DNA of 64,000 bases from an uncultured bacterium (GCA_963801165.1 CAWDDT010000004.1:800001-864000); one strand, 5' to 3'. Shown: positions 18,230-63,632, counted from the stretch's first letter. Translations and numbers: made by a program. Notes: a model not told the origin generated them from the sequence alone.

Positions 18230-18280
18230 GGCCGGGATGCTAGAGGCTCTGCGCCTCAGCTCCGCTGAGGTTGAACCAAG

Positions 18281-18895
18281 AGTGATCCCCCCATTTCGGG
18301 GGGATCGGGCGGCCTCCCGGGCCGTGCGAGGGGGGAAGGACGGGCGGCGCTCGCTGTTGGTTGTGTCCCCGTCCTGGTCCAGTCCCTCCCTGTGGTCGGG
18401 TCTGGCCCCGCCCTCCCGCAAGGGGAGGGCTGCTACTGGCGTGACCGCCGATCGGGTGTACCAGCGGCGATTGCGGAGACCAGTAGTGATCCCCCCATTT
18501 CGGGGGGATCGGACGGCCTCCCGGGCCGTCCGAGGGGGGAAGGACGGGCGGCGCTCGCTGTTGGTTGTGTCCCCGTCCCGGACCAGTTCCTCCCTGTGGT
18601 CGGGTCTGGCCCCGCCCTCCCGCAAGGGGAGGGCTGCTACTGGCGTGACCGCCGATCGGGTGTACCAGCGGCGATTGGGGGAGACCAAGCAGTGATCCCC
18701 CCATTTCGGGGGGATCGGGCGGCCTTTTGGGCCGTCCGAGGGGGGAAGGACGAGCGGCGCTCGCCGTTGGTTGTGTCCCCTCCCTCGGTCAGCTACTCGC
18801 CTGCGGCGGCGCTGCCCTCGACCCTCCCGCAAGGGGAGGGTCACTACCGCGCCACCGCTCGGAAACAACAGCGATCCCCCATTTTGGGGGGATCG
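18281..18895. repeat. intergenic REP/BIME-like palindrome array (204-206 bp units)
   Basis: GATCCCCCCATTTCGGGGGGATC or variant x4 (about 18284, 18488, 18694, 18873) alternating with CCCTCCCGCAAGGGGAGGG x3. Confidence 0.9.
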
Positions 18896-25392: not shown

Positions 25393-25995
25393 TCAGCGAC
25401 ACTCTCCAACCCAGTAGACCTCGCCGTCCTGGATGACCCATGCGGCCTTGCTGTCGAAGGATTGGCCTTGGAAGGTGAAGGAGACGGGCGCCTCGTAATA
25501 CTGGTCGACCGCAAAGGTGGAGTCGCCTGCGGTGAGCGATCGTGACGACGGCCCTGTGATGTTCCCGGTCAGTTTGTAGTCGCTGATGGCGAGGATCTCG
25601 CTGTTTACCCAGCTGCGGCACAGATCGGCGCCAAGGGTGTCCCGGATCTCGGGGAGGAGCCGGTCGAACAGGAAACCGCCGTCACCCGACTCGGTGGCGG
25701 CGACGTAGTCGGTGACGAACTGCTCGATCGACGGCGGAGGCTCGGTGGTTGTGGTCGTGGTTGTCGTTGTGGTTGCGGTGCTTGACGTGGTGTTGGTTGT
25801 CGTTGGCGCGTTCGTGGTGGTTGTTGTACTCGTCGCTGTCGTGGGTGTGGTCGTCGTGGGTGCGGCGGTCGTGGATGTCGTCGTCGCCCCGGCTTCCGGC
25901 TCGGGTGTCGACGATCCGCCCCTGGACAGGAAACCGACGATCATCAGGAGCAGCCCGACACCGGCCATGGCAAAGCCGATGGTGCGCCGGCTCAT
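25393..25995 (-). CDS. membrane-anchored Thr-rich hypothetical protein
   Basis: N-terminal TM, poly-Thr linker, small C-terminal domain with two Cys; ATGA overlap with upstream gene. Confidence 0.75.
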   Translation of the reverse strand: MSRRTIGFAMAGVGLLLMIVGFLSRGGSSTPEPEAGATTTSTTAAPTTTTPTTATSTTTTTNAPTTTNTTSSTATTTTTTTTTTEPPPSIEQFVTDYVAATESGDGGFLFDRLLPEIRDTLGADLCRSWVNSEILAISDYKLTGNITGPSSRSLTAGDSTFAVDQYYEAPVSFTFQGQSFDSKAAWVIQDGEVYWVGECR

Positions 25996-33354: not shown

Positions 33355-33683
33355 TGGCGCCAACGCGCACCATCTCCGTCGCGACGCCCGCACGGGTCGT
33401 TGACCGCGCCGTGAAGCCAGGGGAGGGGGCGGAAGAGACGTCACAATGGGTTTCGTCGACGGATCGTGCACTGCGCTGTGCGGGCATTCCGGTCCGCGGC
33501 GCCCGGTGAGGACGCTCGACCATACGATCACGGTGCTCGAGGCGGGGTGAGGACCGCCAGGCACAATGGGGTCGCGGTGTGGACCTCGACCATGCGATCA
33601 CGGTGCTCGAGCAGTGTGGGTACGATCGTATGCAAGAGGAGCGATCTATCGGGTCGATCATCTGAGGTCGATCTACCGGTTGG

Positions 33684-38384: not shown

Positions 38385-39122
38385 AGCTGCCGTCCCGTCC
38401 AATCGACAGGCACCATCGAGGCAATGTCCTCGTCAGTGGCCGGTCGAGTCGGCACCAGATCGGCGATCCGCCATCGTCCGTCGTCGTCTCGGTGGTAGGT
38501 GAACGTAGTCAGCTCGGGGTCCCACCCCAGGTATTCGCGAACGACCACGTCGTCGGCATCTCTGATCAGCTGGATGTCGCGATCTTCGACGTACACGACT
38601 GTTGCGGTGTCGCCCGAGACGCTCGAGCACTTCGATGCCGAGGGTGCGGATGCCGGCGTCGGCGTAATGCCAGCCGGGGTTGGCGGCGAGCTCCTCGAAG
38701 CCGGCGACGATGGCTGTCCCAGTAGGGGTAGTCGGGCTCATACATCAGGCCGGCCATCTCTTCGGCGGTGCCGGTGGGGTGACCCTCGAGATAGTTGAAC
38801 AGGTCGAACAGTTCGATGGCGACGTGGTAGAGGTCGTCGCCCGTCGGGTCGAAGTCGTCGACCGAATCCCGGTTCATGTTCGACACCACTACCTCGGGGC
38901 GAGCGAGGGGGTCGGCGGTTTTGTGGTTGTGGTTGTGGTCGCCGGGGGCTGGGTCGTACTCGTCGTGGTGGTAGTGGTGGTTGTGGTGGTCGTCGACGTG
39001 GCGGTGGTCGTGGTGGACGACGGTGCGGTAGTTGTGGTCGTCGTCTCTGAGCCGGTGCCCGAGCACGAAACCAGGATGACCCCCGCCACCGCGAGGGCCC
39101 CGAGCCGGCGGATCTCCCCCAT
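38381..39122 (-). CDS. Thr-rich lipoprotein, frameshifted
   Basis: lipobox LVSC, poly-Thr linker; continues through several frames to a stop at 38381. Confidence 0.6.
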
Positions 39123-45419: not shown

Positions 45420-45490
45420 CTCCCGATCAACGGCTCCGGATGCGTGGAAATTCCGCGCTCGCCGGTGGCGTCGGGGGAGCGACCGTTCCC

Positions 45491-46615
45491 CTACAGCGTC
45501 GCTGCATAGGCGGCTTCTACCGCAAATGCCTCGGCCTCGATGGGGTTGGTGGCGTAGTCGAAGCCGGATTGGACGAAGCCCATGCCGTAGGCGCACGCAA
45601 AGGCATCCTCGAACCGGAAGCGCCGGTACTGGTCGACGTGGGTGGTCTCGTGCACCATCAGTGCCTTGTCGTCGTCGACGGTGGGGTCCCATGCGTCGCG
45701 CACGTAGATGTCGTAGCTGAGGGTGTAGCCGGCGAACTCAGGCCCCATGAAGGTCATCGCCAGGGTGCCGTCGCTGAAGTGGTTGCCGGACAGGGCGGCG
45801 TTCTCCATGAACCCGACCTTGGTGAGGTCGACGTTGGGGAAGATCGGCTGGATCTCCGTCTGGAAATCGGGAGGCAGCGACTGGAACGGCTTGCCCAGAT
45901 TGAACAGGATGTTGTCGGCTTCGGCCAGGTTGTGGATGAGGATCCCACCGAGGCAGCCGCCCAACATGGCGAGCGCTTCGAGCAGTCCCATGGCGAGGTC
46001 GCCGAGCCAATCGAGAGCCCGGTCGATGGCTTCCAGCGCCCATTCGTATGCTGCTGCCGCCCTCTCCTCGACCCATTCGACCACGTCGGCGGCCGCTTCC
46101 ATAGCCCAGTCGGCGGCGGCGGTGAGGTCTTCCCAGACAGCCTCGGCGGTGTCTTCGAGCCATTCCCATGCCGCTTCGGCACCATCTTCGATGGCTTCCC
46201 AGGCGTCTTCGGCTGCGGCGGAGATCGCCTCCCAGGCTTCTTCAGCGGCATCGGCAATGGCGTTGACGGCTGCATCGACCAGGTCGGTGGCGCCGTCCCA
46301 GGCTTCCTCGGCGAGTTCGGCAAACGCATCGAAGACGTCACCGGCGGCGTCGACGGCGTCTTCGGCAAGGTCACCGAGCGCGTCGACGGCGTCCTGTGCG
46401 AAATCGGCGACCGCTTCGACCACATCTTCGACGGTGTCGATAACCGCGTCGACGACATCGCCGACCGCATCGATGACGTCTTCTGCCACGTCGCCTATTG
46501 CATCGACAACGTCTTCGATGACGTCACCGGCCGCGTCGACCACGTCCTCGACTACGTCGCCTACGGCGTCGGCCGCGTCACCGACGGCGTCGACTATGTC
46601 CCCAAGAAGGCCCAT
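45491..46615 (-). CDS. acidic 11-mer amphipathic-repeat protein with C-terminal DUF4157-like HExxH domain
   Basis: [11 protein letters not shown]-type repeats; AMTF...IY...[12 protein letters not shown]...Y..NPIE.EA. Confidence 0.75.
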
Positions 46616-46627
46616 GATGAGTACCGG

Positions 46628-47080
46628 CTAGCCGCGGGCGGCGATGTCGGCGAGCAGGATCTCCATCGCCTCTTCGGTGGTGAATCCGGCCGTCTCCAGG
46701 GTCTGCTTCTTGAGGGCGAGCATCTCGGCACGGCGAGCCAGGATCACCTTGACGTCGTTGGAACCGGCGATGTGGTCGAGGCCGGCCCGGGCCACGTCGA
46801 CCTTGAGGTCGAAGCGGTCGAGCACCGAGCCCCGGGCAGCTCCCGTTGCGATCTCGGATGCTTCCCGCACGATGGCGTTCTCGAGGGACGCCTGGCTGGC
46901 GGACGCGGCGGCGGCCTTGATGGTTGCCTGCACGTCGTCGGGCAGCTTCTGGTTGGCCTTGAGACCCAACCGGTCCTTCATCACTTTGGTGACGGACTTG
47001 TCGATGTCCGTCTCGAGCTTCTCCACCCGCAACGTCGGTGCGGTGACGGTTCGCGTCGGCAAAGTGGTTCTCGCTGGCAT
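46628..47080 (-). CDS. hypothetical helical protein
   Basis: ATG with AGGAGG RBS; 12 nt from the downstream gene. Confidence 0.7.
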   Translation of the reverse strand: MPARTTLPTRTVTAPTLRVEKLETDIDKSVTKVMKDRLGLKANQKLPDDVQATIKAAAASASQASLENAIVREASEIATGAARGSVLDRFDLKVDVARAGLDHIAGSNDVKVILARRAEMLALKKQTLETAGFTTEEAMEILLADIAARG

Positions 47081-47198
47081 GTGCCCTCCTCTGGGTCTGG
47101 TCTGTCGGGTACTAGAGGCGGGAGAGGAGGGTTTGATACGTCGCGAGGTCGAGTGCTTGCCGCAGGAGGGAGGCGGCGTCGCGGGACGTCTGGCCCTG

Positions 47199-47738
47199 TC
47201 AGTCCACCAGATCGGCTGGATCGAAGCTGACCTCGGCCGGTCCGATGTCGAGGGTGACGGTGGTGCCCGGCCCGTGCCGGCCCTGTTCGACCAGGATTCC
47301 GTCGACCAGCTTGTAGACGATGACCTCCGGTCCGTCGGGGTCGATGATCCAGTAGCGCTCGAGCCCGGCCGCGGCGTATTTGGCGGCCTTGCGGATGATG
47401 TCCCGGGCAGGGTCCGAGGAGAGCACCTCGACGGCCAGATACGGTGTTGCGGTGTAGCGCACATCCTCGCCGCGGTCATCGAAGACCATCACATCCGGCC
47501 CAAACTCGTCCGGGCCGGGCTTCCAACCCCAGCCCTCCCGTACACGGGTTGGCATCGATACGGCGCTCTTGAGGATGACCGCAAGGTTGAACGAGACATC
47601 CTGATGACGACCACCGGGGAACGGACTCATAACGAGCTCTCCGTCGATGTACTCGCCTCGGACGTCGGGTCCGAGTGCTTCGTATTCGTTCCAGGACATG
47701 GGGATGCGGTCCCCGGGTTGCATGGTCTTGGTAGCCAT
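47199..47738 (-). CDS. Uma2 (DUF820) family PD-(D/E)XK endonuclease, copy 1
   Basis: [11 protein letters not shown]...HQ...PDV...VEVLS...K..KYA..G...YWIIDP; 540 bp. Confidence 0.92.
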   Translation of the reverse strand: MATKTMQPGDRIPMSWNEYEALGPDVRGEYIDGELVMSPFPGGRHQDVSFNLAVILKSAVSMPTRVREGWGWKPGPDEFGPDVMVFDDRGEDVRYTATPYLAVEVLSSDPARDIIRKAAKYAAAGLERYWIIDPDGPEVIVYKLVDGILVEQGRHGPGTTVTLDIGPAEVSFDPADLVD

Positions 47739-47885
47739 GTCATACACAGTAACCCTCCTTCGCCCTCCGCGGTGGTGCGCCTTCAGCACCATCTCATGCG
47801 GGTGTGACACGATCCGGCCGGTGCTTGGCTGCGTGGTCGAGACTCGCGGCTGTCGCGGGTGAATCGCGCCGGGGGACGCGTATGG

Positions 47886-48425
47886 CTATGCCACGAGCTC
47901 TACCGGATCGAAGCTGACCTCCGTTGGTCCGATGTCGAGGGTGACGGTGGTGCCCGGGCCGTGGCGGCCTTGTTCGACGAGGACGCCGTCAGTGAGCCGG
48001 TACACGATGACCTCGGGTCCGTCGGGGTCGATGATCCAGTAGCGCTCGAGACCTGCGGCGGCGTATTTGGCGGCTTTGCGGATGATGTCCCGGGCAGGGT
48101 CTGAGGAGAGCACCTCGATGGCCAGATAGGGAAGCGCGGTGAGGCGCTTTCGCTCGTCGGACACGCCGAATACCGTTACGTCCGGGATGAATTCGTCGTT
48201 GTCCGGCTTCCAAGCCCAATTCTCCACTACCTCGGCGTGCTCCGGCAATGCGACTTCGATGAGTTTGTGGATGCGATAGGCGATCCGTTGGTGGTCTAGC
48301 GTCGGCGACGGGCTCATAACGAGTGCGCCGTCGATGTACTCGCCGCGGACGTCGGGCCCGAGTGCTTCGTATTCGTCCCAGGACATGGGGATGCGGTCCC
48401 CGGGTTGCATGGTCTTGGTAGCCAT
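47886..48425 (-). CDS. Uma2 family endonuclease, copy 2
   Basis: same motifs; 540 bp; 687-bp period from copy 1. Confidence 0.92.
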
Positions 48426-48579
48426 GTCATACACAGTAACCCTCCTTCGCCCTCCGTGGTGGTGCGCCTTCAGCACCATCTCATGCGGGTGTGACACGAT
48501 CCGGCCGGTGCTTGTCTGCTGCTCGAGACTCGCGGCTGTCGCGGGTCAGAACTCGCCGCCGGGGTGACCGCTGTATCGG

Positions 48580-49118
48580 CTATGCCACGAGCTCTGCTGG
48601 ATCGAAGCTGACCTCTGCCGGTCCGATGTCGAGGGTGACGGTGGTCCCCGGGCCGTGCCGGCCTTGCTCGACGAGGACGCCGTCATGAGCCGGTACACGA
48701 TGACCTCCGGTCCGTCGGGGTCGATGATCCAGTAGCGCTCGAGACCGGCCGCGGCATACTTCGCAGCCTTGCGGATGATGTCCCGGGCAGGATCCGAGGA
48801 CAGGACTTCGACGACCAGGCACGGTGTTCCGGTGTAGCGCGTCTCCTCGGGAGTTATGTCGTGAACCACCACGTCGGGGACGAACTCGTCCTTCCCTGGC
48901 TTCCACGCCCAATTCTCCACAACAACAATCTCTCTAGGGAGGTTCGCTTCGATGAGATTGGCAAGTCGACGCGCCAGCTGTTGGTGGCGGTGCGTCGGCG
49001 ACGGGCTCATAACGAGTTCCCCGTCGATGTACTCGCCGCGCACGTCGGGCCCGAGTGCCTCGTATTCGTCCCAGGACATGGGGATGCGGTCCCCGGGTTG
49101 CATGGTCTTAGTAGCCAT
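48580..49118 (-). CDS. Uma2 family endonuclease, copy 3 (1-nt deletion near 48686)
   Basis: 539 bp; CCGTCA-TGAGCC versus CCGTCAGTGAGCC in copy 2. Confidence 0.85.
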
Positions 49119-49265
49119 GTCATACACGATATACCTCCCTCGCCCTCCACGGTGGTACGCCTTCTGTATCGTCTCAAGCGGGTGTGACAATTTCGGGCGT
49201 ACCCCTCGCAGTGTGACGGTTGGTGCCACAATGTGCGTCGGTGGTGCCGTCGATACGGGGGACCG

Positions 49266-52200
49266 ATGCCGATACAGCTTCATGTAGCTCCGCATCCAGA
49301 CGCGCTCGTCGATTTGCTCATCGACCGGCTTGCCGTCCCTCCCGAGGATCCGTTTGCGCCGGAGCTGATTGCGGTTCCGACCCGGGGTATCGAGCGGTGG
49401 CTGACGCAGCGGATCGCGCTCGGGTTCGCTGAGCGCGGGATTGGTGACGGGGTGGTCGCCAATGTCGAGTTTCCGTCGCCACGCCATCTGGTGCAACAGG
49501 TGCTTGCTGTTGTTCCCGACCTCGCCGCCTCTGCCGATGCCTGGCAGACGGCCAACCTCACCTCTCACGTGCTCACCGCCATCGACCGGCATGTCGACGA
49601 GGCGTGGCTGCGGCTCATCCAGCGATACATCGACGGCCCCACCGGGCCCAACCGGCTCGGCGCCGCTACCAAGATCGCCCGGCTGTTCTCGACATACGCC
49701 AGGCGCCGTCCCGAGATGATCCGCTCCTGGGCAGATGGCCAAGACGTCGGGCCTGCCGGTGAGCCGATCGACGCCGGGTACGCATGGCAGCCGACCCTGT
49801 GGCGGGCGGTGCGAGACGAGATCGGCATTCCGCCGCTCGCCAGTTTGCTGCCGGAAGGGCTCGACCCCATCCGCGACGGATCGATCGACCTCGACCTGCC
49901 CGACCGGCTCGCCGTGTACGGGCTCACCGCCACCGATCCGCTCGACCTCCAGGTGCTCCGGGCACTCGGCGAGCAGCGGGATGTGGCCCTGTATGCGCTG
50001 CACCCCTCGCCGGGGCTGTGGCAGACGCTCGCGGCGGGCGGGCTGACGGTCATTTCCCGCGACGACGACCCCACCGCAGCCGCCCCGGTGCATCCGCTGC
50101 TCGGCTCATGGGGCAGAGACAGCCGTGAGCTACAGACGGTGCTGAGCGATGCCGGGCTCGCATCCTCCCTGTCTAGCTCTGGGGATGAACAGCCGTTTGA
50201 TGCCCTCCCCGGCGAGCCCCTTCGGGGCCGCCGACCCTCCCAAAGGGAGGGTGAATCTCCCTCTCCCTCTGGGAGAGGTCCCGAGCGAAGCGAAGGGGGT
50301 GAGGGCCTTGTGGTGCCGTCCGATATTCCCTCTCCCTCTGGGAGAGGTCCCGAGCGAAGCGATGCCGGTGAGGGCGTTGTACTGCCGGCCGGTCCGGGGA
50401 TTCCCTCTCCCTTTGGGAGAGGTCCCGAGCGAAGCGAAGGGGGTGAGGGCCTTGTGGTGCCGTCCGATATTCCCTCTCCCTCTGGGAGAGGTGGCGAGCG
50501 AAGCGATGCCGGTGAGGGCCTTCGACTGCTCGCCCGGATCCAGGCCGACATCGAGAACAACCGCCCGGCAGAGCCCCAACCCGACCTGGCCGAAGCCGTC
50601 ACCGCCGGCTCGGATCGCAGCGTGCAGATCCACGTCACCTACGGGCCGCGTCGTCAGGTGGAGGTCACCCGCGACGTCATCCTGCACCTTCTCGCCGACG
50701 ATCCGACCCTCGAGCCGCGTGACATCGTCGTCATGACCCCCGACCTCGGCACCTTCGCCCCGTTGCTCGAAGCGGCCTTCCCCACAGGCGACCGCGACGA
50801 CACCGATGGCATGCCCGACCTGCGGCTCCGCATCGCCGACCGTTCCCCGGCGGCGGTCAACCCGCTGGTGCGGTTCGCTGCCAGCGTGCTCGAGCTCGCC
50901 GACTCCCGCATGGAGGCCAACACCATCCGGCAACTGGTCACCCGCCCGGTGGTGCAGCAACGCTTCGGGTTCGACGTCGACACGGCGGCGGCCATCACCG
51001 GCATCATCAACGACAGCAACATCAGCTGGGGCCTCGACTCCGACCACCGGGAGCAATGGGGCGCCGGGCACTTGCCCGACCGCACCTGGAGCCGCGGCCT
51101 CGACCGGGCGTTGACCGGCGTCTTTTACAGCGACGACCCGGTGCGGGTGATCGACCGCACCGTGCCCCTCGACGGCGTCGAGGGGCAGGACGCCACTCCG
51201 GTGGGGCTGCTGGCCGCCCTCATCGACCGCATCGGTGCCATCCGGGACCTGCTCGCCAACGCGATGCCGATGTCGCAATGGGCGCAGGCGATCGCCGACA
51301 GCGTCCGGCTGCTGGCCAAACCCGGCTGGGACGACGAATGGCAGATTGGCCAGCTGGAGCGGCTGCTCGGCGAGACCTTCCCCGAGACCACACGGGACCC
51401 AACGCTCACCCTCGCCGAAGCCCGCCGGGCGATCGCCGGTTGGACCGAGACCCGGCCCAGCCCGCTGCACTTCCGCACCGGCGACGTCACCGTGTGCACG
51501 CTGGTGCCGATGCGCTCGGTGCCGTACCGGGTGGTGTGCCTGCTCGGCATGGACGACGAGCGCTTCCCCCGCTCCAGCCGCACCGACGGCGACGACCTGC
51601 TGGTGGGCGACGAGCGGGTTGGCGATTTCGACCGCAGCTCGGAGGATCGCCAGCTGCTGCTCGATGCGTTGATGGCGGCAAGCGACCACCTCGTCGTCAC
51701 CTACTCGGGAAGGGACGAGCTCACCAACAGCGAGCTGCCCCCTGCGGTGCCCATCGCCGAGCTACGCGACACCCTCGACGACATGGTCGGACCCGACGGG
51801 CTCGCCGCCATCGTCACCCAACATCCGCTCCAGTCTTTCAGCACCGCCAACTTCACCCCCGGCGCCCTCGGTGTGCCAGGGCCGTTTGGTTTCGACGCCG
51901 CCGCCTTCGCCGGAGCCGGGGCGATCGCCACCGGCTCGACGACACCGCTTGTCGAGGCGGGCTGGCCCGACCCCGAGCCGATCGAGACTCTCGACCTCGG
52001 CGACCTGATCAAGTTTCTGCAACACCCGGCGCAACGTTTCCTGCAAACCCGGGTGGGCTATGTGGTGCCAAGGGCAGGTGAGGAGCCCGACGACACGCTG
52101 CCCGCCGACCTCGACGCACTCAGCAAGTGGAAGGTGAAAGAGCAGGTGCTGGACGGCCTGGTCGACGGGTACGCGCTCGATGCCCTTCAGCTGCGGCAAC

Positions 52201-52892
52201 GGGTCGGCGACACGCTGCCGCCGGGGGCGCTCGGCGACGATGATCTTGCCGATGCCGTCGCCGCAGCGAGCGCACTGTGGGAAGGAGCTCAGGAACGTTC
52301 CTACCACCGGCAACAGATGCGCACATACCTGGGGAGTCTCCCGATCGGCGGGGTGACGGTGGCGGGCAGCGTCCTGGGCGATCCGGGCGAGGCACACCTG
52401 GCCCGGGTTACGGCATCCACCATCAAGGGCAAGCACCGGCTGCAGGCTTTCGTCGAGCTCGTGTTCCTGAGCGCGCTGGAGCCCGAGGTTGCGTGGGAGT
52501 CGTTCCTGCTGGGGAGACGGGGCTCGGGGCACCTCGCGGTGACGATCGGCCCGGTGGGCGGCGATCCCGACCAGCGCCGGCGGCGGTCTCTTGAGTTGCT
52601 GGCTGAGCTGGTTGCGCTGCATGCCGAAGGTATGCGGGAGCCGCTGCCGCTCCCGTGTCAGACCGCCTATGCCTGGCAGCGCAACGTCGGCTCCGATCGG
52701 GGCAAGGCTTTTGGTGAGGCGATGAAGGTCTGGGAGTCCGACCGATACGACCCGGAGGCGCAGGACCCGGCCTACCAGACGTTATTCGGGGGTGTTCTGT
52801 CGTTACGGGATTTGCTCGCCACCGACTTCGAGGACTACTGCGCCAGGCTCTGGGGCCCGATCTTTCCTTTGATGCGGGAGCAGAGCATATGA
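49266..52892 (+). CDS. recC: exodeoxyribonuclease V gamma subunit with in-frame palindrome insert
   Basis: [64 protein letters not shown]. Confidence 0.95.
50201..50520 (+). repeat. REP-like palindrome array inside recC
   Basis: CCCTCTCCCTYTGGGAGAGGT..CGAGCGAAGCGA...GGTGAGGG at 50259, 50328, 50403, 50472, preceded by an inverted related element. Confidence 0.92.
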
Positions 52893-55800
52893 CCGCCTTC
52901 TCCGAATTCGACCCCCGTGAGCCACTAAGCGAAGGCCGCACCGTCATCGAAGCCAGCGCCGGCACCGGCAAGACCTTCGCCATCTCCGCCCTGGTAACCC
53001 GCCTCATCGCAGAGGAAGGCCTCCCCCTAGAAGAGATCCTGGTAGTCACCTTCACCAGAGCCGCCACCGCCGAACTACGAGCAAGGGTCCGCGACCGAAT
53101 CCTGCTGACGCTCCGTGCGCTAGAAGCGGCGGGCGCCGCTCGCTTCCTCGCCCTCGACCGGGCTGAGCCCGGTCGATCCCCCCGAAATGGGGGGATTACT
53201 GCTGGTTCCGAAGCCGGTGGCCCCGCTATTTCCTCTCCCTTTGGGAGAGGTGGCGAGCGAAGCGGAGCTGGTGTGCCCGGTTCTTTCCCTCTACCTGGGT
53301 GAGGCTGGGACTGGTGGGACGCTGACCGGGCTGTGCCCGGTTCTTTTCCTCTCCCTTTGGGGAGGTGCCTGCGTGGGAGCTGAAGGGTGTGCCCGGTTCT
53401 TTCCCTCTCCCTTCGGGTGAGGTGCCTGAGGGGAGTGAGCTGGTGTGCCGGTTCTTTCCCTCTCCCTTTGGGTGGGGCTGCGCTGGCCGGGAGCTGAGGG
53501 TGAGCCCGGTTCTTTCCCCTCGCCTTCGGGTGAGGTGACCTGGTGGGTAGTCCGAAGCCGGTGGCTCAGCAGTAACCCTCCCCTTGCGGGAGGGTCGAGG
53601 GAACGCCAGCGACCGAGGGGAGGGGAGGGCGAACCACGCTGGAACGTCGTCCGAGACCCAAACTCCGAACCAGTCAGACGAACATGTCGCAGTCCTCCTC
53701 CAGGCCGACCCGGCCACCCGCGACCTGTACGCCACCCGCCTCCGCCAGGCGCTGACGCATTTCGACCGTGCCCAGATCTTCACCATCCACGGGTTCGCCC
53801 AGCGGCTGCTCGGCCAGCTCGGGTTGCGGGCCCGCCTCTCACCCGACCTGGAGCCGGGGGAGCCCGACGAGTTGCTGTTGACCCAGACCGCAAGCGACCT
53901 GATCGTCGGCCGCTACGCAGACAACGCCGCCGAGCAGCCCCCCAAGTTCAGCGACGTGGTTGGTGTTGCCCGTGCCGTCATCGGCACGCCGGACGCCCGC
54001 ATCGTCCCCGACCCGGACGACGTCGACGGTGCGGCGAGGGCCCGGGTGGAGCTGGCACACGCCATGCGCACCGAGGTGCACCGCCGGATGCAGGCGCAGG
54101 GCCAGGTGACCTACGACGATGGGCTGCTCGAGGTACGGGACACCCTCGGTGACCCGGAGGTGGGTGCCGCCGCCCGTGAGGTGTTGATGCGCCGCTATGC
54201 GGTGGCGCTTGTGGACGAGTCGCAGGACACCGACCCCATCCAGTGGCAGGTGATCCGGGCGATCTTCGACGAGTCCCGGCTGGTGGTGATCGGCGACCCG
54301 AAGCAGTCGATATACAGCTTCCGTGGCGCCGACATCGAGTCATACCTGGCCGCCCTCGACGGCGCCGACTCGCTGCGGACGTTGCGGACCAACTGGCGCA
54401 GCGACGGCGGGCTGCTGGTCGGCCTCGATGCGTTGTTCGATGAGGCCAGCTTCGGCGACGACCGGATTCGCTATCTCCCGGTGCAGCCGGCCCCGGGCCA
54501 CGAGCACGCCCGCATCACCGGCATCGCGGCACCGCTGTCGATCCGTCGCTTCGGCACCGGCATCCCCATCAACAAAGCGAGGAAGGGCGTCTTCTACATC
54601 AACGACGCCCGCCAGATGGTGGCCGCCGATGTCGCCGCCGAAATCGTCCGTCTGCTCACCTCGGGAGTGACCATCACCGGCCCCGACGGGCCGCGGCCGC
54701 TGCGTCCCGACGACATTGCGGTGCTGTGCCGCACCCGTCGCCAGGTGGACATGGTGCGTGGCGAGCTGACCCGTCGTGCGGTGCCGTCGGTGGCGGCCCG
54801 CACCGGGGGAGTGCTCGCCTCGGCCGCCGCCGAGGAGTGGCGGCGATTCCTGCACGGCGTCGAAGCCGCCGAGCGGATGGACCGGGTCAAGCTGGCGGCC
54901 AGCTCGCTGCTCGTCGGGTACACGCCGCAGCAGATCGCCGCCCTCAGCGACGAGGAGGCGCTGGAGCTGCAACGCCGGATGCAGCAGTGGCGGGAGCTTC
55001 TATACAACGACGGGATCCCGGCGCTGGTGGCAGCCGTCGACCGGTTCTGCGGGCTGTCGGCACGGGTGCTGACGGTGCCGGACGGGGAGCGGATCATGAC
55101 CGACCTCACCCACATTGCCGAGGAGTTGCATGCGGTGTGGCGGCGGCGCCGGATCGGCTCGCTGGTGGGGTGGCTGGAGACGGCGATGGCCGAGGCGGCC
55201 CAGCGGGAGCTGACCGGCGCCGAGGAGGCCGAGTCCCGGCAGCGTCGTCTCGAGACCGACGCCGATGCGGTGCAGGTGCAGACCGTCCACGCCGCCAAGG
55301 GTTTGCAGTGGCCGGTGGTGATGGTGCCGTACGGGTGGGATGCCCCGGCCCGGCGTTATCCCATCCCGGTGTTCCACTCCGACGAGCCGACCGCCGTGGG
55401 TGACGCCAGGGAGCGACTCATCGACGTCGGAGGCAATGGCGCCCCCGGCTTCGCCGACCATGTGCACCGGGCATCGGCCGAGGATGCCGGTGAGGAGGCC
55501 AGGCTGTTGTATGTGGCGTTGACCAGGGCCGAGCATCACCTGGTGGCGTGGTGGGTGGAGAACACCGACAACACGCCGAACTCGAAGCTGGACGAGCTGC
55601 TCACCGGCGACGACCGCACCCTCGACGGACTGGTCGAGATCGCAGGCGGCAACATCGGGGTGGTGATGGTGAACGATCGCCCATCCACTACCCGGTACCG
55701 CCCGGCGGCGCCACAGCCGCAGCGTCTGGAGCGGGCCCGGCTCGATCGCCGCCTCGACTACGACTGGCGGCGGGCCTCGTTCTCATCGTTGTCGCCGGAG

Positions 55801-56701
55801 CACCCCATCGGGGCCGCCACCGACACCGCCGAGCCCACCAAGGCGGACGAGTCCGACTTCGCCGTCGAACCGGAGGAGGAGCCCGTCGCCGGGGAGTCGT
55901 CGTTGCCGATGGCGGAGCTGCCCCGCGGCGCCCGCTTCGGCACGCTGGTGCACCACATCTTCGAGCAGGTGCCGTTCGACGCCCCGGACCTGGAAGCGGC
56001 GATCCGGGAAACGGCGGAGGAGGCGTTGCGGCTGGCCGCCTGGGACATCGACCTCGACACGCTCACCGCGGCGGTGCTGGCGGCGATGGAGACCCCGCTC
56101 GGCCCCGATCCGGCGTCACCCCGGTTGCGGGACCTCGATGCCGCACCGGGTATTCGACGAGCTGACCTTCGAGCTGCCGGTCCGCACCGACCGGGGCACG
56201 GTGTCGCTGCGGGACATCGGCGATGTGATGCTCGAGCACCTCGACCCCGCCGACCCGTTCCGCCGCTACGCCGAGACCCTGCACACCATGCCGCAGACCC
56301 GGTTCCGCGGGTTCCTCACCGGCGCCATCGACCTGACCGCAGTGATGCCCGGCGAGCGCTACGTGGTGATGGACTACAAGACCAACGCCCTCCCGACGCG
56401 AAGCGACGCCCCGGCCGCACCCGACTACGGCCCGCACCAGCTGACCACAGCGATGATCGACGGCAACTACGTGCTCCAGGCCACCCTCTATCAGGTGGCC
56501 CTGCACCGCTACCTCCAGTGGCGTCTCGCCGGCTACGACCCGGCCCGCCACCTGGGAGGCGCCATGTATCTGTTCGTCCGCGGCATGGCCGGCCGGGATG
56601 CCCCGGTGGTTGACGGCGAACGCTGCGGCGTAGCCCGCTGGACCCCACCCCCGGAGATGATTGTTGCCCTCAGCCGCCTGTTCGCAGGAGACGCCCAATG
56701 A
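52889..56701 (+). CDS. recB: exodeoxyribonuclease V beta subunit, interrupted by a palindrome array (about 53135-53670) and a frameshift near 56145
   Basis: EASAGTGKT, VTFTRAATAELR, FTIHGF, VDESQDTD, GDPKQSIYSFRGAD, TVHAAKGL, LYVALTRA, GAIDL..DYKTN nuclease domain. Confidence 0.92.
53150..53632 (+). repeat. REP-like palindrome array inside recB (partly degenerate)
   Basis: GATCCCCCCGAAATGGGGGGAT, TTTCCTCTCCCTTTGGGAGAGG, about five garbled CCGGTTCTTTCCCTCTCCCTT units, CCCTCCCCTTGCGGGAGGG. Confidence 0.85.
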
Positions 56702-59097
56702 CGCCCCGCATCGCCCTGGCAACAGAACGCCCCTGGCTGGTGGTAGCGGCAGACGGCCTGCTGGCGACGTTCAACGACGCCGGTGTCCTCAACCCGCTGG
56801 ACGTCAAGGCCGCCCAAACCATCGCCCGCCTCCTCGGCGAAACCGACGACCGCGTGCTCCTGGCCGCAGCGCTGGCCGTCCGCGGCACCAGATACGGCCA
56901 CGTATGCATCCGCCTCGACACAGTCAGAGACGCGGTAGCAGTAGACGGCCAGGACCCCGAAGAAATCGAGCACCTGCCCTGGCCCGAAACAGAGCCCTGG
57001 GCGGAGGCAGTACAAGCAAGCCCCCTGGTAACCAACACCGACCCCCCACTGGTCTACGAGCAAGGCCGCCTATACCTAGCCCGCTACCACCACTACGAAC
57101 AACAGGTAGCCAACCTCCTCCTATCCCGCCTTTCGCCGGTTCTTCCCTCTCCCTTTGGGAGAGGTGCCGAGCGAAGCGAAGGCGGTGAGGGCCTTAGTGA
57201 GCAGAAGCCGGGATTGGTGATGCGGCACAGAGGGATGCCCGCCCAGCAACCCTCCCCTTGCGGGAGGGTCGAGGGAGCGTCAGCGAGCGAGGGGAGGGGA
57301 GGCCGGACGGCGGTGGGGTGGTTGGTACCGGTGATGGCGGAGCAGCAACCATCCCCTTGCGGGAGGGTCGAGGGACCGTCAGCGAGCGAGGGGAGGGGAG
57401 GCCGGACGGCGGTGAAGTGGTTGGTACGGGTGACGGCGGAGCAGTAACCCTCCCCTTGCGGGAGGGTCGAGGGAGCGTCAGCGAGCGAGGGGAGGGGAGG
57501 CCGGACGGCGGTGATGGCCCTTCCCCCCTCGACCGGGCTGCGCCCGGCCCCGGTTCCGGAGCGGAGGGGGAAACAGCTGGTGGCCCCACTATTTCCTCTC
57601 CCTTTGGGAGAGGTGGCGAGCGCAGCGAAGCCGGTGAGGGCATCCCGTCTGAAGCGAGCGGCGCTCAACCAGACGAAGCCGGTGGCCCCGCTATTTCCTC
57701 TCCCTCTGGGAGAGGTGGCGAGCGAAGCGAAGGCGGTGAGGGCCTTGTGCAAGCAATCCCCCCGAGTTCCCACTCCGTTCTCGCCCGTCTCCTCGGCGCA
57801 GACACCCGCCAACACCAGGCCGCAATGTTGGCGCTCACCAGCCGTGTGACGGTAATCGCCGGAGGCCCCGGCACCGGCAAGACCCACACCATCGCCGCGC
57901 TCCTCGCCGCGTTGGCGGCGGGCGACGAGTTCCCCACAGTCGCGGTAGCCGCCCCCACCGGCAAAGCCGCAGCCCGCCTCGGCGAAGCGCTGGACGCAAT
58001 GGCTCACGAAGTAGCCGACGACCGCATCGCAACCCGCCTGGCAACCGTCGTGCCGAGCACCATCCACCGCCTCCTCGGCTGGACCTGGGACCGGGCCCGT
58101 TTCGCCCACAATGAGCGAAATCGTCTCCCTCACGACCTGGTGATAGTCGATGAGATGTCGATGGTCTCGCTCCCGATGGCCGCCAAGCTCCTGGCGGCGG
58201 TGCGTGACGATGCGACGGTGGTGCTGTTAGGCGACCCCGACCAGCTGGAGTCGATCGAGGCCGGCACCGTACTGGCTGACATAGTCAGCGCCGGCCAGCG
58301 AGCAAGGAATACCCATCGCCAACCACGTGGTGGTGCTCGACCGAGTCCACCGTTTCGAGGAAGACAGCGCCATAGCCGACTTCGCCGCAGCGGTCCGCGA
58401 TGGCAACGCCGATGAAGCGATCGAGCTGTTGCGGGCCGGCAGCGATCATGTCACCTGGGCCGGGGATCGCCAGTCCAGAGTCTTCGACGAGATCTGGTCC
58501 CGCCTCATAGACCAACGCATCCGCCTGGTAGAGCTGGCCGGCGACGGCGACGGCCCTGGAGCCCTGGCAGCGCTGAACGAGCTTGCCGTGTTGTGTGCCC
58601 GCCGCAATGGCCCGCAAGGCGTGTCGGGTTGGGGCCGCGAGATCGAACGTGCCCTGGATGAGCGATTCACCGGTTTGCGCTGGGGGAGCGACTGGTACCC
58701 GGGCCGCCCGGTGATGATCACCAAGAACGATTACAGCCAGGACCTGTGGAACGGCGACATCGGCGTGTGCGTGGAGACGCCGGACGGCATGCGGGTGCTG
58801 TTCGACCGCGCCGGCGGCCGGGAGCTACTACCCAGCCACCTGGGCGAGCACACCACGGTGCACGCCATGACGATCCACAAGAGCCAGGGCTCCCAATTCG
58901 ACGAGGTAGCGGTGGTCCTCCCCAGCGAGTCGTCCCGCCTGCTGACCCGGGAGCTGCTGTACACAGCGGTGACCAGGGCGAGAACCCGGGTCAACATCAT
59001 CGGCAGCGAAGACGTGGTCCGGGCGGCTGTGGAGCGCTCGGTGCAACGGGCATCAGGACTCGGTGCGCGGCTAGCCAAAGTCGCCACGGAACGCTGA
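56698..59097 (+). CDS. recD: exodeoxyribonuclease V alpha subunit, interrupted by a palindrome array (about 57135-57745) and a frameshift near 58300
   Basis: GHVCI, LYLARY, GGPGTGKT, APTGKAAARL, VDEMSMV, GDPDQLESIEAG, MTIHKSQGSQF, LLYTAVTRAR. Confidence 0.92.
57135..57745 (+). repeat. REP-like palindrome array inside recD
   Basis: three CCTCTCCCTYTGGGAGAGG units plus three TCCCCTTGCGGGAGGGTCGAGGG units at a 99-bp period. Confidence 0.92.
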
Positions 59098-59161: not shown

Positions 59162-59336
59162 TCAGGTGAGGAGCTGTGCCGGGTCGAGGGTGACTTCGGC
59201 CGGGCCTGCGTCGAGTGTGACCTCGGACCCCGGGCGGTGGATTGCCTGCTCGACAAACATTGAGTCGGCCAGGCCGTACACGGTGATCTCGGGTCCTCGA
59301 GGGTCGATGATCCAGTAGCGCTCGAGGCCGGCGGCT
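59162..59336 (-). pseudogene. Uma2 copy 4, 3' fragment only
   Basis: [20 protein letters not shown]...TLDAGPAEVTLDPAQLLT*; similarity ends about 20 bp from the REP dyad. Confidence 0.85.
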
Positions 59337-59356
59337 GACCCTGGGTGTTCTGGACA

Positions 59357-59487
59357 TGCCCTCCCCGGCCAGCCCTGCGGGCGGCCGACCCTCCCAAAGG
59401 GAGGGTGAACCATTGAGAGAAGCGGATGCGCCGGAGGTTCCTCTCCCTTGGGAGAGGTCCCGAGCGAAGCGAAGGGGGTGAGGGCCT
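59357..59487. repeat. intergenic REP-like dyad
   Basis: both palindromic arms closely match 50201-50307 in recC, with a different spacer. Confidence 0.9.
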
Positions 59488-59522: not shown

Positions 59523-59575
59523 GCACTTATCACTATGAAACATACCAACAAGGTATGTTCTGTTATAGTAAGTGC
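59523..59575 (+). promoter_or_regulatory. long inverted-repeat operator over the leaderless abiE promoter
   Basis: AACATACC-AACAA-GGTATGTT core, outer GCACTTA/TAAGTGC; -10 TATAGT 6 nt before ATG 59576. Confidence 0.75.
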
Positions 59576-60292
59576 ATGATCTTGAGTTTGCTGGCGCACG
59601 GGAACCGGGTGTTGCGGCCCCAGGATGCCGCCGGGCTGTACGCCGAGCCCAGCAAGGAGTTTGCCCGGCTGGCCGATGCGGGCGTGCTGCTGCGGCTCTC
59701 TCATGGCTATTACGCGGTAGTGCCGGAGGAGCGGCGATCGGCGGCCTGGCGTCCCACGGTCGAAGGCGTTGCTCTCGGCGTGGCAATTGCCGACTACTCG
59801 ACAGACGCGGTGGCGTTGATGGGCGTGTCGGCCGCTCGAGTCCTGGGATGGGTGCCCCGCGCCATGGCTGGTGCCGTGGTGGGCGTGCCCAAACAGCGTC
59901 CGGCTCGACAAACCCCGGTTGGCCCGATCACCTTTGTGATGCGCGATGTGGGGAGGCTCGAGGTCCAGGTCGTAGAAACAGATCTGGTCCGGGGGTTCGC
60001 CACGACTGCCGAGCAGACCGCACTGGATATCGCCCACCGGCCGGGTCGCGGCGGGGTTGGTCCGGCAATGGCGGTTGAGACTCTGACCGTCCTCGCCGAG
60101 CACCTCGACTGGGATGTAGTTGCCGACCTCACCACACGCCAGCGGAAGCACTCGGCAGCAGCCCGGCTGGCATGGATCGCATCGGCGGTCGTCGATCCGC
60201 CTTCTTTGCCGCGGCCCCGCAAGCCCGTTTCGTCGCTCGGGTTGCGTCCGAGGGGCACCAGGCCGGCCGCTGATTTCGGGGTCGTCGAATGA
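59576..60292 (+). CDS. type IV TA antitoxin, AbiEi family
   Basis: wHTH (LLRLSHGYY), ALMGVSAA..LG, TTAEQTALD; ATGA-coupled to the toxin. Confidence 0.85.
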   Translation: MILSLLAHGNRVLRPQDAAGLYAEPSKEFARLADAGVLLRLSHGYYAVVPEERRSAAWRPTVEGVALGVAIADYSTDAVALMGVSAARVLGWVPRAMAGAVVGVPKQRPARQTPVGPITFVMRDVGRLEVQVVETDLVRGFATTAEQTALDIAHRPGRGGVGPAMAVETLTVLAEHLDWDVVADLTTRQRKHSAAARLAWIASAVVDPPSLPRPRKPVSSLGLRPRGTRPAADFGVVE

Positions 60293-61032
60293 TCACCCCG
60301 GACGAGGTGGCCGGCCAAGCCGGACGATGGGGTGTGGCGCCGAGCCAGATCGAGAAAGATCACATGATCTCGCATCTGCTCGCCGCCATTGCAGAGACGG
60401 GCTTCCCTTGCCGGTTCTACGGCGGGACGGCGCTGAATCGGAGCCACGTCGCCGGCGGCCGTCTCTCTGAGGACATCGACCTGATGGTGGATGACATCTC
60501 TGTCGATGTTGGTGCGGTGCTCCGTCGTCCGCTGCTTCGCCATGTGGGCGACACGACCTGGGAGCTGAGGTCTCGTCGCACCTGGATGCGGACATACGAC
60601 GTGACGGCGCTGGGCACCTCGGTCCAGCTGCAACTGGTGCGGTTCGATCGGGACGATCGGCGTTGGGGCTGGGAACAGCGGCCCGTCGAACTCCGCTACT
60701 CGTGTCTTCCGGATCATGTTGTCATGAATCTGCCGGTACGCGACGGATTCGTCGCGATGAAGTTGAACGCCTACACGGAAAGGTGGGCGCCACGCGATCT
60801 GATGGACCTTGCCAATCTGGCCGGTCGGGGTGCGATCACCGCCCGGGCGGTGGCGCGCTATCGCCACGCCACCGGAAGAGGTGTGTCGCTGGATGACTTC
60901 GCTTCCGTCCGCAGGCCGACACGTGCCGAGTGGAACACGGAGCTGGGACATCAGATGGCCGAACCGGGGGAACCGGAGGAAGCGGTGCAGATCGTCCACG
61001 ACGCGTTGGCGTCGGCAGCTCGATCTGCGTGA
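60289..61032 (+). CDS. type IV TA toxin, AbiEii/AbiGii nucleotidyltransferase
   Basis: QIEKDH, FYGGTAL, RLSEDIDL, MKL.A..ER..PRDL.DL. Confidence 0.9.
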   Translation: MITPDEVAGQAGRWGVAPSQIEKDHMISHLLAAIAETGFPCRFYGGTALNRSHVAGGRLSEDIDLMVDDISVDVGAVLRRPLLRHVGDTTWELRSRRTWMRTYDVTALGTSVQLQLVRFDRDDRRWGWEQRPVELRYSCLPDHVVMNLPVRDGFVAMKLNAYTERWAPRDLMDLANLAGRGAITARAVARYRHATGRGVSLDDFASVRRPTRAEWNTELGHQMAEPGEPEEAVQIVHDALASAARSA

Positions 61033-61716: not shown

Positions 61717-62008
61717 CTAACAGAGCAGTTCGGCGGGTCGACAGGTCACCTCAGCCGGCCCGACGTCGAGGGTCGCCGATGCACCCGGCCGGTGCCGGTA
61801 CCGTTCTACTAGGACGCCGTCGACCAGCCTGTAGATGATGATCGCGGGTCCGTCGGGGTCGATGATCCAGTAGCGCTCGAGCCCGGCGGCTGCGTACCTG
61901 GCGGCCTTGCGGATGATGTCCCGAGCAGGATCCGACGACAGGATCTCGACGACCAGGTGAGGTACGGCGGTGTAGCGGATCTCATGTCCGTTGTCGTCGA
62001 AGACAATG
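61717..62008 (-). pseudogene. Uma2 copy 5, 3' half only
   Basis: hand translation: [53 protein letters not shown]...AELLC*; N-terminal half absent. Confidence 0.85.
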
Positions 62009-62148
62009 GGATGGGCCCAAGAGCCGTCGAGGCCGCTTGCAGCCGTCAGGCCGTCGATCTGCGCTACGGTCAGCGCCCATGTTGTCGGAGACTCGTCTCC
62101 CGTGAGATCGCCACGGCCCCGGATCCGCGTACCAGTCCGCTCGAGTCC

Positions 62149-62772
62149 TTACTCGGGTCGGAGTTGCCACGGCTCGTGCTCGTGTGTAAGCCAGACCCGG
62201 ACGGGATCGAGGGCGCGCACCAGCCGTTGGCCGTCGGTGCTCGGCTCGTCGAGCTCCCCGAACCACACTGCGACATCACCACCGACGACGACCGGGCGCC
62301 CACCAGTGTCGACGACGACGATCTGCGTGCCGCGTGTGTGGCCCGGTGCTGGGACGAGGCGGACCCCGGGGAGCAGCTCGAGTTCGCCGTCGACCGGGAT
62401 GTACTGCACGCCGCGCGCATCGACCCATTCACGGATGGTGTACCCCTCCTCGCTGTGCGCGTCGTCGAGCTCCCTACGCTGGACGTAGATCGGCTTGCCG
62501 GTGAAGAGGTGGTTGCCGCCGCAATGGTCGAAGTGAAGGTGCGTGTTGACAACGAGGTCGACGCTGCCGAGATCGAAGTCCTGCTGGCTCAGCGGACGGA
62601 TACGGGGATCAAGGTCGGCCACAGCCGGGTGCAGTTCCGTGAGGCCGGTGTCGACGAGCACGCGAGCGTCGGGATGATCGATGATGTGCACGTAGATGGG
62701 TAGCCGCTCGCTCTCTGCCAGCAGGTCGCCGACGAAGATCGGTGTGACGGTGATCGAGGCGGGAGCGTTCAT
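62149..62772 (-). CDS. N-acyl-homoserine-lactonase-like MBL hydrolase
   Basis: LVDTG, THLHFDHCGGN, PGHT.G, GGD. Confidence 0.85.
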   Translation of the reverse strand: MNAPASITVTPIFVGDLLAESERLPIYVHIIDHPDARVLVDTGLTELHPAVADLDPRIRPLSQQDFDLGSVDLVVNTHLHFDHCGGNHLFTGKPIYVQRRELDDAHSEEGYTIREWVDARGVQYIPVDGELELLPGVRLVPAPGHTRGTQIVVVDTGGRPVVVGGDVAVWFGELDEPSTDGQRLVRALDPVRVWLTHEHEPWQLRPE

Positions 62773-62883
62773 GGTGTCTCGGCCACCGCATTCGCAACGT
62801 GACGCACGATGGCCTCGTTTGCGTGTTCGTGGCTGGAGTGTGGGTTAGTGGTCATCGGAGGATGGGAGCCTCTGCGTTTCGGG

Positions 62884-63422
62884 TCAGTTGAGTAGCTCTG
62901 CGGGGTGGAAGCTGACCTGTGTCGGTCCGACGTCGAGTGTCACTGACGTGCCCGGGCCGTGACGCCCCTTCTCGACGAGGACGCCGTTGGTGAGCTGGTA
63001 TACGATGACCTCGGGTCCGTCGGGGTCGATGATCCAGTAGCGCTGGAGCCCGGCGGCTGCGTATTTGGCGGCTTGCGGATGATGTCCCGCGCCGGGTCAG
63101 ATGACAGGATCTCGACCACGAGGTGTGGTGTCCCCGAATGGCGGGTCTGCTCGGGGGAGTCGTCGTGGACCGTCACATCGGGTACGAACTCGTCGTTGCC
63201 GGGTTTCCATCCCCAGCCCTCGACGACACGTGCCGGAGCGGTTAATGCCGTCTTCAGAATGATGGCGAGATTGAGCGATATGTCCTGGTGTCGATGGGTA
63301 GGTGACGGGCTCATGACGAGACTCCCGTCGATGTATTCGCCACGCACATTGGGGCTGAGTGCTGCGTATTCGTCCCAGGACATGGGGATACGGTCGCCGG
63401 GCTGCATGGTCTCGGTAGCCAT
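62884..63422 (-). CDS. Uma2 family endonuclease, copy 6 (1-nt deletion near 63073)
   Basis: 539 bp; restoring one base gives [17 protein letters not shown]...HPAELLN*. Confidence 0.85.
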
Positions 63423-63584
63423 GTCATACACAATAGACCTCCCTCGTCCCCCGCGGCGGGGCCTCTCGAGCATCATCCCTGCCAAGGGAAACTGCGCTCG
63501 GTGGCCCCTCCACGGCGGAGCCTCGCGATGATGATGACGCAGGGCTGTGATACGCCGCGTGGCCTATAGACCGGGGGTCGTCTT

Positions 63585-63632
63585 TCCTCTCCCTTTGGGA
63601 GAGGACGCGAGCGAAGCGAAGCAGGTGAGGGC
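63585..63632. repeat. single REP-like element upstream of Uma2 copy 6
   Basis: TCCTCTCCCTTTGGGAGAGGACGCGAGCGAAGCGAAGCAGGTGAGGGC. Confidence 0.85.

Follow-up and report, generated by a model that had tools for sequence, protein, structure and literature searches.

The plus strand of a 64,000-nucleotide (nt) stretch of DNA from an uncultured bacterium (the window, G000:C4:800001-864000) carries an operon in the order recC-recB-recD, and each of these three genes contains an array of GC-rich hairpin elements of a kind that also occurs between genes. The source genome bin, G000, comprises 13 contigs and 4.55 Mb and is 98.19% complete. Related genomes are labelled G003, G005, G007, G014, G016, G023 and G033, public proteins carry P numbers, and X1 to X4 denote sequencing runs. 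The intact, insert-free RecC, RecB and RecD proteins of the relative G033 were used as a ruler for the reading frames, and the genes are laid out as follows.

49233-52892, plus strand: recC, an intact open reading frame (ORF) of 1219 amino acids (aa), in frame 3 throughout.
52889-53122, plus strand: recB N-terminal 78 codons with Walker A and motif Ia, frame 2.
53677-56140, plus strand: recB helicase body, frame 1 (ruler alignment extends to 56169).
56141-56701, plus strand: recB nuclease domain PF12705, frame 2 (ruler alignment to 56689).
56698-57138, plus strand: recD N-terminal domain RecD_N, frame 1.
57756-58304, plus strand: recD helicase domain with Walker A, frame 3.
58315-59097, plus strand: recD C-terminal domains, frame 1 (ruler alignment to 59073).

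RecC passes the TIGR01450 equivalog model (679.9 bits, cut-off 582.9). The RecB model TIGR00609 is matched in two pieces of 93.1 and 376 bits, each below the cut-off of 696, with PF12705 in a third piece; the parts of RecB, namely the superfamily 1 (SF1) helicase and the C-terminal PD-(D/E)XK nuclease, are all found, with the frame interrupted twice as assembled. RecD is likewise interrupted twice and matches TIGR01447 in three pieces (63, 183 and 236.5 bits), each below the cut-off of 310. In the homology-defined frames, coupled stop-start ATGA overlaps link recC to recB at 52889-52892 and recB to recD at 56698-56701, the recB stop TGA occupying 56699-56701 and the recD ATG beginning at 56698.

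Four modules, A to D, were defined by reading the sequence of the elements. Module A consists of CCTCTCCC-loop-GGGAGAGG followed by CGAGCGAAGCGAAGG and GGTGAGGGC, module B of CCCTCCCC-TTGC-GGGAGGG followed by a tail ending in GGGGAGGGGAGG, and module C of two hairpins ending in CCCCCCGAAATGGGGGG, while module D is a degenerate A-like unit of 55-60 nt that lacks the tail of A. Compared with shuffled sequence, hairpin potential is significant for modules B (z -3.1) and C (z -3.8); it is not for modules A (z -0.4 and -0.9) and D (z -1.5), although A contains a perfect 8-bp stem. Modules A and B have complementary ends. The arrays within the genes are mosaics of the four modules and measure 0.32-0.63 kb.

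50202-50522, plus strand: recC insert, ~103 aa, in frame; a composite hairpin (gccctccccggc...ccctcccaaagggaggg) followed by four A modules.
53123-53676, plus strand: recB insert; module C hairpins (~53150-53200), a nested block and module B (53570-53633).
53222-53565, plus strand: nested recB block of 344 nt; one A module, five degenerate D units (spacings 56/60/56/55/58) and one copy of TCCGAAGCCGGTGGC.
57127-57755, plus strand: recD insert; A (57142-57192), three B modules (57244-57505, period 99), a partial C (~57520-57560), A (57590-57641) and A (57692-57743).
59357-59485, plus strand: intergenic composite of hairpin and A module, most closely related to the sequence that opens the recC insert.
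63566-63632, plus strand: intergenic A module.
18275-18886, minus strand: array of composite C+B units spaced at 204/206 and located in an RmlD-like gene's 5' leader.

A repeat search recovers the same elements as a 67-nt family with ten copies (50240, 50309, 50384, 50453, 53212, 57126, 57575, 57677, 59419 and 63566), divided among recC (four), recB (one), recD (three) and intergenic sequence (two), with spacings of 69/75/69 in recC and, for recD, 102. A second family, of 99 nt, is found at 53560 in recB and at 57234, 57333 and 57432 in recD (spacings 99/99), and a 41-nt family in recB repeats at 56/60/56/55/58. Spacings between like units are divisible by 3 in three of three cases in recC and three of three in recD, against 9/30 between genes, bearing in mind that units within one array do not represent independent events. 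These measurements agree with the periods given in the first-pass annotation of the window (69/75/69, 99/99 and 102, all triplets, with 204/206 in another array), and its central observation, that arrays found between genes also lie inside all three RecBCD genes, is borne out by both the repeat and the genome searches. Its description of the array at 18281-18895 as intergenic needs amendment, as the array is real but is placed in the 5' leader of the minus-strand RmlD-like gene.

The recC insert is fully in frame, as had been stated, with the 1219-aa ORF open throughout; 82% of its translation consists of G/S/P/E/R/D. An open frame runs straight through the insert in G000 recC and in G003 recB. 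The peptides LPLREGRG and EAGGPAISSPxGRGGERS, previously noted as common to the recB and recD inserts, can be seen in the translations of both. The recC insert opens with the composite of 59357-59485, including its TCCC/GGGGG variant, and the nearest relatives of the recB A copies are the recD A copies and vice versa. No target duplications were seen at the outer junctions of the inserts, and flanking direct repeats were seen only around the nested 344-nt block.

The G+C content of recBCD is 69-71% (window 49500-58000), compared with 62-66% in the flanks and 64% in the genome. The E. coli Chi octamer GCTGGTGG occurs nine times in the window against 3.2 expected, though the host's own Chi may differ. 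RecBCD accounts for six of them, each on the coding strand (51599, 54279, 55023, 55161, 56736 and 57576), and one falls in sequence that extends an A module on its 5' side; codon usage may be the source of the excess.

Across G000, nhmmer found 82 A and 11 B matches in 46 clusters, with 12 matches in recC/recB/recD and 81/93 outside. A blastn search with the three inserts returned 67 loci totalling 10,120 nt, 64/67 of them outside recBCD. Eleven of the 67 overlap predicted ORFs by >30 nt. Three of these are recC, recB and recD. In five others, Pfam matches and translations place the repeats in false 5' extensions that precede the true start or the first domain (NuoF, RmlD-like, SLH/metallophosphatase, C_GCAxxG and one ORF without family), and the last three are short or low-scoring ORFs or the first codons of a gene. 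As far as tested, the elements are thus internal to recC, recB and recD only and otherwise intergenic in G000, which extends to the whole genome the earlier statement that no other gene of the window contains them. The uvrA gene of G000, looked at because it is tagged by repetitive extragenic palindromic (REP) sequences in other species, is intact and without insert. Among 42 genome-wide A copies, the frame used here is open in 40/42 and antisense frames are open in at least 41/42, so that openness itself costs little.

Enterobacterial REP sequences and their mosaics (bacterial interspersed mosaic elements, BIMEs), as well as the REPIN hairpins of the systems with REP-associated tyrosine transposases (RAYTs), are GC-rich hairpins in mosaic intergenic arrays with a species-specific consensus and conserved loci. 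The G000 elements resemble REP/BIME in being GC-rich hairpin modules in mosaic intergenic arrays, and also in having a consensus particular to the species at loci that are conserved. They differ from the REPIN/RAYT system in having longer modules and ~90 A and B copies rather than hundreds, and in the lack of a RAYT: the Y1/RAYT transposase family PF01797 gave 0 matches in G000 at the completeness stated above, with a control search positive in 6/14 known genomes. Rfam yielded no family match anywhere in the window.

Among related genomes, many of them incomplete, recC was found in 10/41. Inserts occupy identical recB and recD sites in G003, G005 and G014, with none in G007, G016, G023 and G033. 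The recC insert is common to G000 and G003, first composite element included; it is missing from G005 and from both recC copies of G014, so that the clade is polymorphic for it. Insert composition varies by species, with B-like units that have a different inner hairpin and reversed A-like units in G005, G014 and G003. The G005 unit belongs to a dispersed family with 23 matches in G005, 28 in G014, 7 in G003 and 0 in the insert-free G007 and G033. Outside recBCD, 25 element blocks of G003, G005 and G014 were assessed by the proteins on either side: in no case (0) did the same protein continue on both sides, 14 lie between two different proteins and 11 have a protein match on one side or none. 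A count of coding against intergenic copies, suggested by the first-pass annotation, thus finds copies not to be common in unrelated genes, either among these 25 blocks or among the 67 loci of G000. Many of the blocks share intergenic positions with G000 arrays. Shared positions combined with differing make-up indicate that arrays are stable in place, with their sequence following each genome's own family.

The sole locus returned when genome contigs were scanned with RecC was the contig of G014 that holds its second recC. This bin holds two distinct recC-recB loci (contigs C24 and C10), one with 95-99% protein identity to G000 in its 3' part, and it is probably a mixture of two strains. In G016, ~1.4 kb separates recB from recD (L018 7538-8978), and an extra gene seems to lie inside the operon at this point.

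Public proteins were searched with the recD piece and with G003 RecB, taking the best 120 matches of each and requiring both sequence anchors. Both anchors are present in 105 of the 120 RecD matches, with a linker of 57-64 aa in 98 and of 82-154 aa in seven. The seven long-linker proteins (P0001-P0005, P0008 and P0010) are intact ORFs of 624-693 aa and are among the ten top-scoring matches. For RecB, 79 of the 120 have both anchors, 63 with a linker of 58-59 aa and four (P0122, P0123, P0125 and P0151) with one of 83-104 aa. Several of the closest RecB and RecD proteins are attributed by their sources to Acidimicrobiia, and judging by these names the lineage studied here probably belongs to that class. 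Among translated elements and public proteins single shared 6-mers are noise, and meaningful peptide sharing is confined to P0125, where the shared run reaches at least 8, and P0122, where there are two 6-mers, at the insert site; a P0151 peptide recurs in the G003 recD insert. In G000 the A family is translated in sense frame 1; P0122 uses another sense frame, and P0125, G003, G005 and G014 read the family antisense. That the same DNA element is translated differently according to frame and orientation argues for tolerated loops and against a selected peptide. Used by itself as a query, the recC insert (residues 318-432) matched no protein at E <= 0.001. Among representatives searched with G005 RecC, the closest is P0241 at 58% identity over the full length, and a partial match of 776 aa reaches 71%.

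Alignment to the E. coli chains places the insertion sites at RecC ~331-345, RecB ~90-97 and RecD ~125-135, the last between the RecD_N domain (domain 1) and the Walker A domain (domain 2). All three are variable linkers between conserved blocks. An AlphaFold (AF2) model of RecC residues 1-1199, built with 101 sequences, has a mean predicted local distance difference test score (pLDDT) of 87.3 and a predicted template modelling score (pTM) of 0.84, and matches the E. coli RecC chain 8b1t_C with E 1.6e-50 and template modelling (TM) scores of 0.73/0.80. Residues 314-426 form its sole internal segment with pLDDT <50 and have no secondary structure. In the G003 RecB model (pLDDT 85.1), insert residues 82-168 fall <50 with one short helix at 89-95; the model is also low at 854-860 and 882-905. 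Alignments and low-confidence segments together agree with the earlier placement of the inserts between conserved blocks. The models suggest that the inserts are probably translated as disordered loops in which Gly, Ser, Pro, Glu and Arg abound, and these would presumably be exposed to solvent in the assembled enzyme.

The codons flanking the inserts are under purifying selection. Pairwise omega (the ratio of non-synonymous to synonymous rates) between G000 and G005, G014 or G003 is 0.13-0.19 for all three genes, values at odds with the relaxed selection that the first-pass annotation had named as a sign of decay. Changes specific to G000 number 41 synonymous and 11 non-synonymous in recB (pN/pS 0.095), 30 and 11 in recD (pN/pS 0.129) and 73 and 56 in recC (pN/pS 0.27). 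The proposal that a palindrome family has colonised RecBCD under selection to keep the frame is thus supported by the restriction to recBCD, the triplet spacings, the purifying selection and the intact relatives, and for the lineage it is largely correct; for this assembly it is weakened by recC being the only gene here in which the insert is in frame.

In recB and recD of this assembly the frame is broken both within and outside the arrays. The nested recB block has stops in all frames and non-triplet spacings, and is bounded by a 15-nt direct repeat, TCCGAAGCCGGTGGC, with copies at 53207 and 53551 that are the only two in the genome. When the block and one repeat copy are left out, recB frame 2 joins frame 1 exactly and is open from 52889 to 56611. 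The second recB break consists of one extra C at 56141/56142, a base missing in G005, G014 and G003. In the recD array a single switch from frame 1 to frame 3, within 57199-57445, gives continuity. The second recD break is the following.

58290-58315, plus strand: one extra base at ~58299-58304 compared with G003, G005 and G014, in a variable loop.

The net frameshifts that had been reported across the recB and recD inserts are therefore seen, but the further breaks at ~56141 and ~58299-58304 had been missed; the former was overlooked because the wrong frame remains open to 56613. A nested block was also considered as the cause of the recD shift and rejected, the GAAGCCGG repeats there lying in different codon phases. 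The loop of the second recD break corresponds to the ADIVG loop, which is expanded in the public RecD P0009 (756 aa) by a low-complexity insert of ~140 aa.

As a background for these breaks, 158 other G000 genes (65,432 aligned aa, ~196 kb) contain four frame changes: two in an IS30 transposase gene, one in gatA and one that probably represents two adjacent genes. The gatA break (G000:C7:280600-280640) is an extra G in a G run, which indicates that the assembly does contain base-insertion errors. The three recB/recD point breaks read as single extra bases, like that of gatA, and are rather more likely to be consensus errors than real. The 344-nt block is more likely a real insertion, either recent or polymorphic. 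Taken together, the recB and recD breaks of this assembly would be either consensus errors or very recent lesions.

We consider the inserts most likely to be tolerated passengers in three permissive RecBCD linkers, in genes that are still under purifying selection and in which the breaks of the assembly are errors or recent lesions (probability roughly 0.62). Tolerated passenger loops are the likeliest reading of the sequence comparisons. According to this model, the lineage would own a GC-rich hairpin repeat family of at least four modules, copies of which entered permissive linkers of RecC, RecB and RecD long ago. Only insertions that keep the frame would survive, and these would persist as translated, probably disordered loops that the enzyme tolerates. 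Copies may in addition move or convert locally within the operon and so stay similar to intergenic copies. Such local copying, suggested by the kinship of the composite and of the A copies, would explain part of the RecBCD bias. The mode of insertion of the elements, the local copying and the tolerance in place of function are each presumptive.

Several points weigh against the tolerated-passenger model. Neutral tolerance leaves the targeting of RecBCD only unexplained. As assembled, the recB array requires at least four frame switches and has stops in all frames, and the two breaks outside the arrays within ~8.5 kb of recB and recD exceed the background, an excess that error alone explains poorly. 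Public contigs leave 58271-58316 uncovered and barely cover 53244-53580. Frame changes elsewhere amount to 0.30 per kb in G014, 0.25 in G003 and 0.057 in G005; the assemblies of G014 and G003 are thus error-prone, and their frame changes carry little weight. The genome-wide gene calls come from a simple codon-usage caller built for this analysis. For RecC no public in-frame REP-like insert was found, the search having reached distant representatives only (27/150 with both anchors); these are too distant for the lack of an insert to count against the model.

The breaks could alternatively reflect a strain whose recB and recD are truly inactivated, with decay of the operon just begun, the 344-nt block and the single-base insertions being real lesions and the arrays tolerated because this strain would have no more need of the enzyme. 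We regard this as rather unlikely. The frame switches needed in recB, unless the 344-nt block is lost, and the density of breaks outside the arrays fit such decay, as does the break at ~58299, which lies among several substitutions and is not clearly in a homopolymer; the scarcity of recC among related genomes, incomplete as many of these are, makes the enzyme seem dispensable in this group. The low G000-specific pN/pS of recB and recD, however, leaves little room for neutral time, and neither the ATGA overlaps nor the nuclease frame is disrupted. The extra C at 56141/56142 is missing from contigs of runs X1, X2 and X4, and the apparently essential gatA shows the same kind of extra base. Nor can decay explain inserts that are common to four species and in frame in public ORFs.

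It is less probable still that the inserts are selected, whether by altering RecBCD activity (a mutator effect), through mRNA or DNA hairpins that set expression, or as a recB switch operated by excision of the block via its 15-nt repeats. RecBCD is the sole enzyme tagged in G000 and, as far as tested, in three relatives, and a bias towards repair genes across phyla is reported in the available part of PMC3733652. The exact restoration of the recB frame upon removal of the block between the 15-nt repeats would suit a switch, and run X2 contigs join 53193/53200 to 53559/53567, skipping ~365 nt of recB; these joints are anchored in 20-27 nt of repeat, could stem from other loci and prove nothing. 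Against selection for a particular product, peptides differ by frame and orientation among relatives, and insert length and composition vary freely from 20 to 200 aa. The bolder idea that RecBCD is a selected landing place, where repeats tune or switch the very enzyme that would otherwise act on the DNA structures or intermediates they give rise to, for example via the block flanked by 15-nt repeats, is doubtful; if true, it would couple hairpin repeats to the double-strand-break enzyme across phyla and make this lineage the best test bed for why REPs sit in repair genes.

Two further explanations have very little to recommend them. One is removal or bypass of the inserts on the way to the protein, through splicing, an intein or translational hopping. 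Skipping or splicing had been raised in the first-pass annotation, but nothing points to such a process apart from the net change of frame over each of the recB and recD arrays as assembled, there is no Rfam match in the window, recC, G003 recB and 11 public ORFs read through in frame, and triplet spacings would be unnecessary. That the intragenic arrays are assembly artefacts is equally hard to credit, for although repeats are difficult to assemble and the genome is a 13-contig metagenome bin, the inserts lie at the same sites in four separate genome bins and in public gene calls, X2 contigs enter the recC insert from its 5' side (49200-50231, 0 differences) and from its 3' side (50500-51163), and contigs enter the recD insert in X3 (56812-57172) and X2 (57720-58270).

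The phenomenon itself is not new, contrary to the first impression. The available part of PMC3733652 (Di Nocera, De Gregorio, Rocco 2013, BMC Genomics 14:522) describes mostly extragenic REPs inside the genes of 'recBCD proteins', UvrABCD, Pol I and DnaE2, some of these ORFs being the only REP-tagged coding sequences of their species. It reports that recB of X. campestris and X. oryzae contains different REPs at about the same site and that the inserts are thought to occupy linkers or loops; its authors doubt that chance is responsible and propose a mutator effect. As far as that part of the paper allows comparison, the family studied here is similar in being mainly extragenic and repeated in the genome (81/93 A and B matches, 64/67 loci), and in having in-frame copies, which are found in G000 recC, G003 recB and public RecB and RecD, although not in G000 recB and recD as assembled. 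It differs in that all three RecBCD subunits are tagged at once, by arrays of 4-8 modules (0.32-0.63 kb) in place of singles or dimers encoding 20-30 aa, and in an Acidimicrobiia-like lineage, the main text of the 2013 paper naming no Actinobacteria. By eye only, no GTAG or CGTC tag flanks the stems of modules A-D. What is new here is therefore the tagging of three subunits, arrays of up to ~200 aa, another phylum and the lack of a RAYT. A literature search by recB, recC and recD gene names gave no further report of REPs in these genes among the papers listed.

Other palindromes are known within coding sequences. According to the available parts of PMC3184786 and PMC10969869, Rickettsia palindromic elements (RPEs) are palindromic repeats carried in frame in protein genes, where they encode an extra peptide thought to be compatible with the fold; they are single units of ~100-150 bp in dozens of unrelated genes, with 44 insertions in R. 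conorii. So far as these descriptions go, the likeness to our elements is one of behaviour, both being palindromes in frame that are read as peptide, while the modules here are 50-65 nt long, arranged in arrays and restricted to one enzyme. The available part of PMC3184786 also describes the intergenic BRE, BOX and ERIC repeats as fused inside coding sequences, BRE in ~9 genes; these are other element types in other taxa, and that part reports no concentration on one enzyme complex.

Why palindromic repeats found within genes lie so frequently in those for DNA repair has been a question since at least 2013. The operon offers a compact natural experiment, with arrays in all three subunits, relatives with and without them, and one element read in different frames. 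Neutral loops would provide a gauge of the amount of unstructured sequence that three linkers of a large helicase-nuclease can accommodate, and loops that are not neutral would link repeat biology to recombination control. In practical terms, such arrays and the consensus errors of long reads together give repair genes in metagenome bins a broken appearance.

The neighbourhood of the operon looks like a defence island. Three tandem paralogous genes of the Uma2 family (PF05685, putative restriction-endonuclease-like) lie just upstream of recC on the minus strand (47199-49187), with further Uma2 copies or remnants downstream of recD at 59172-59352 and 61722-63502. An AbiEi/AbiEii-like toxin-antitoxin pair is located directly downstream of recD on the plus strand (59555-61032), its AbiEi_4 match of 23.2 bits falling below the 25-bit cut-off. 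Repeats of other kinds occur elsewhere in the window. A 596-aa ORF at 45440-47230 contains 12/21/33-nt periodic repeats and has no Pfam match. Runs of GTNGTGGT-type 12-nt periodic repeats at 25742-27459 and 38914-39055 are probably low-complexity coding sequence on one strand. Tandem coding repeats of 183-186 nt with the motif VTRGQMAA, located at 1535-2062, 12133-12635 and 32819-33358, resemble the SLH-type repeats of a protein on contig C11.

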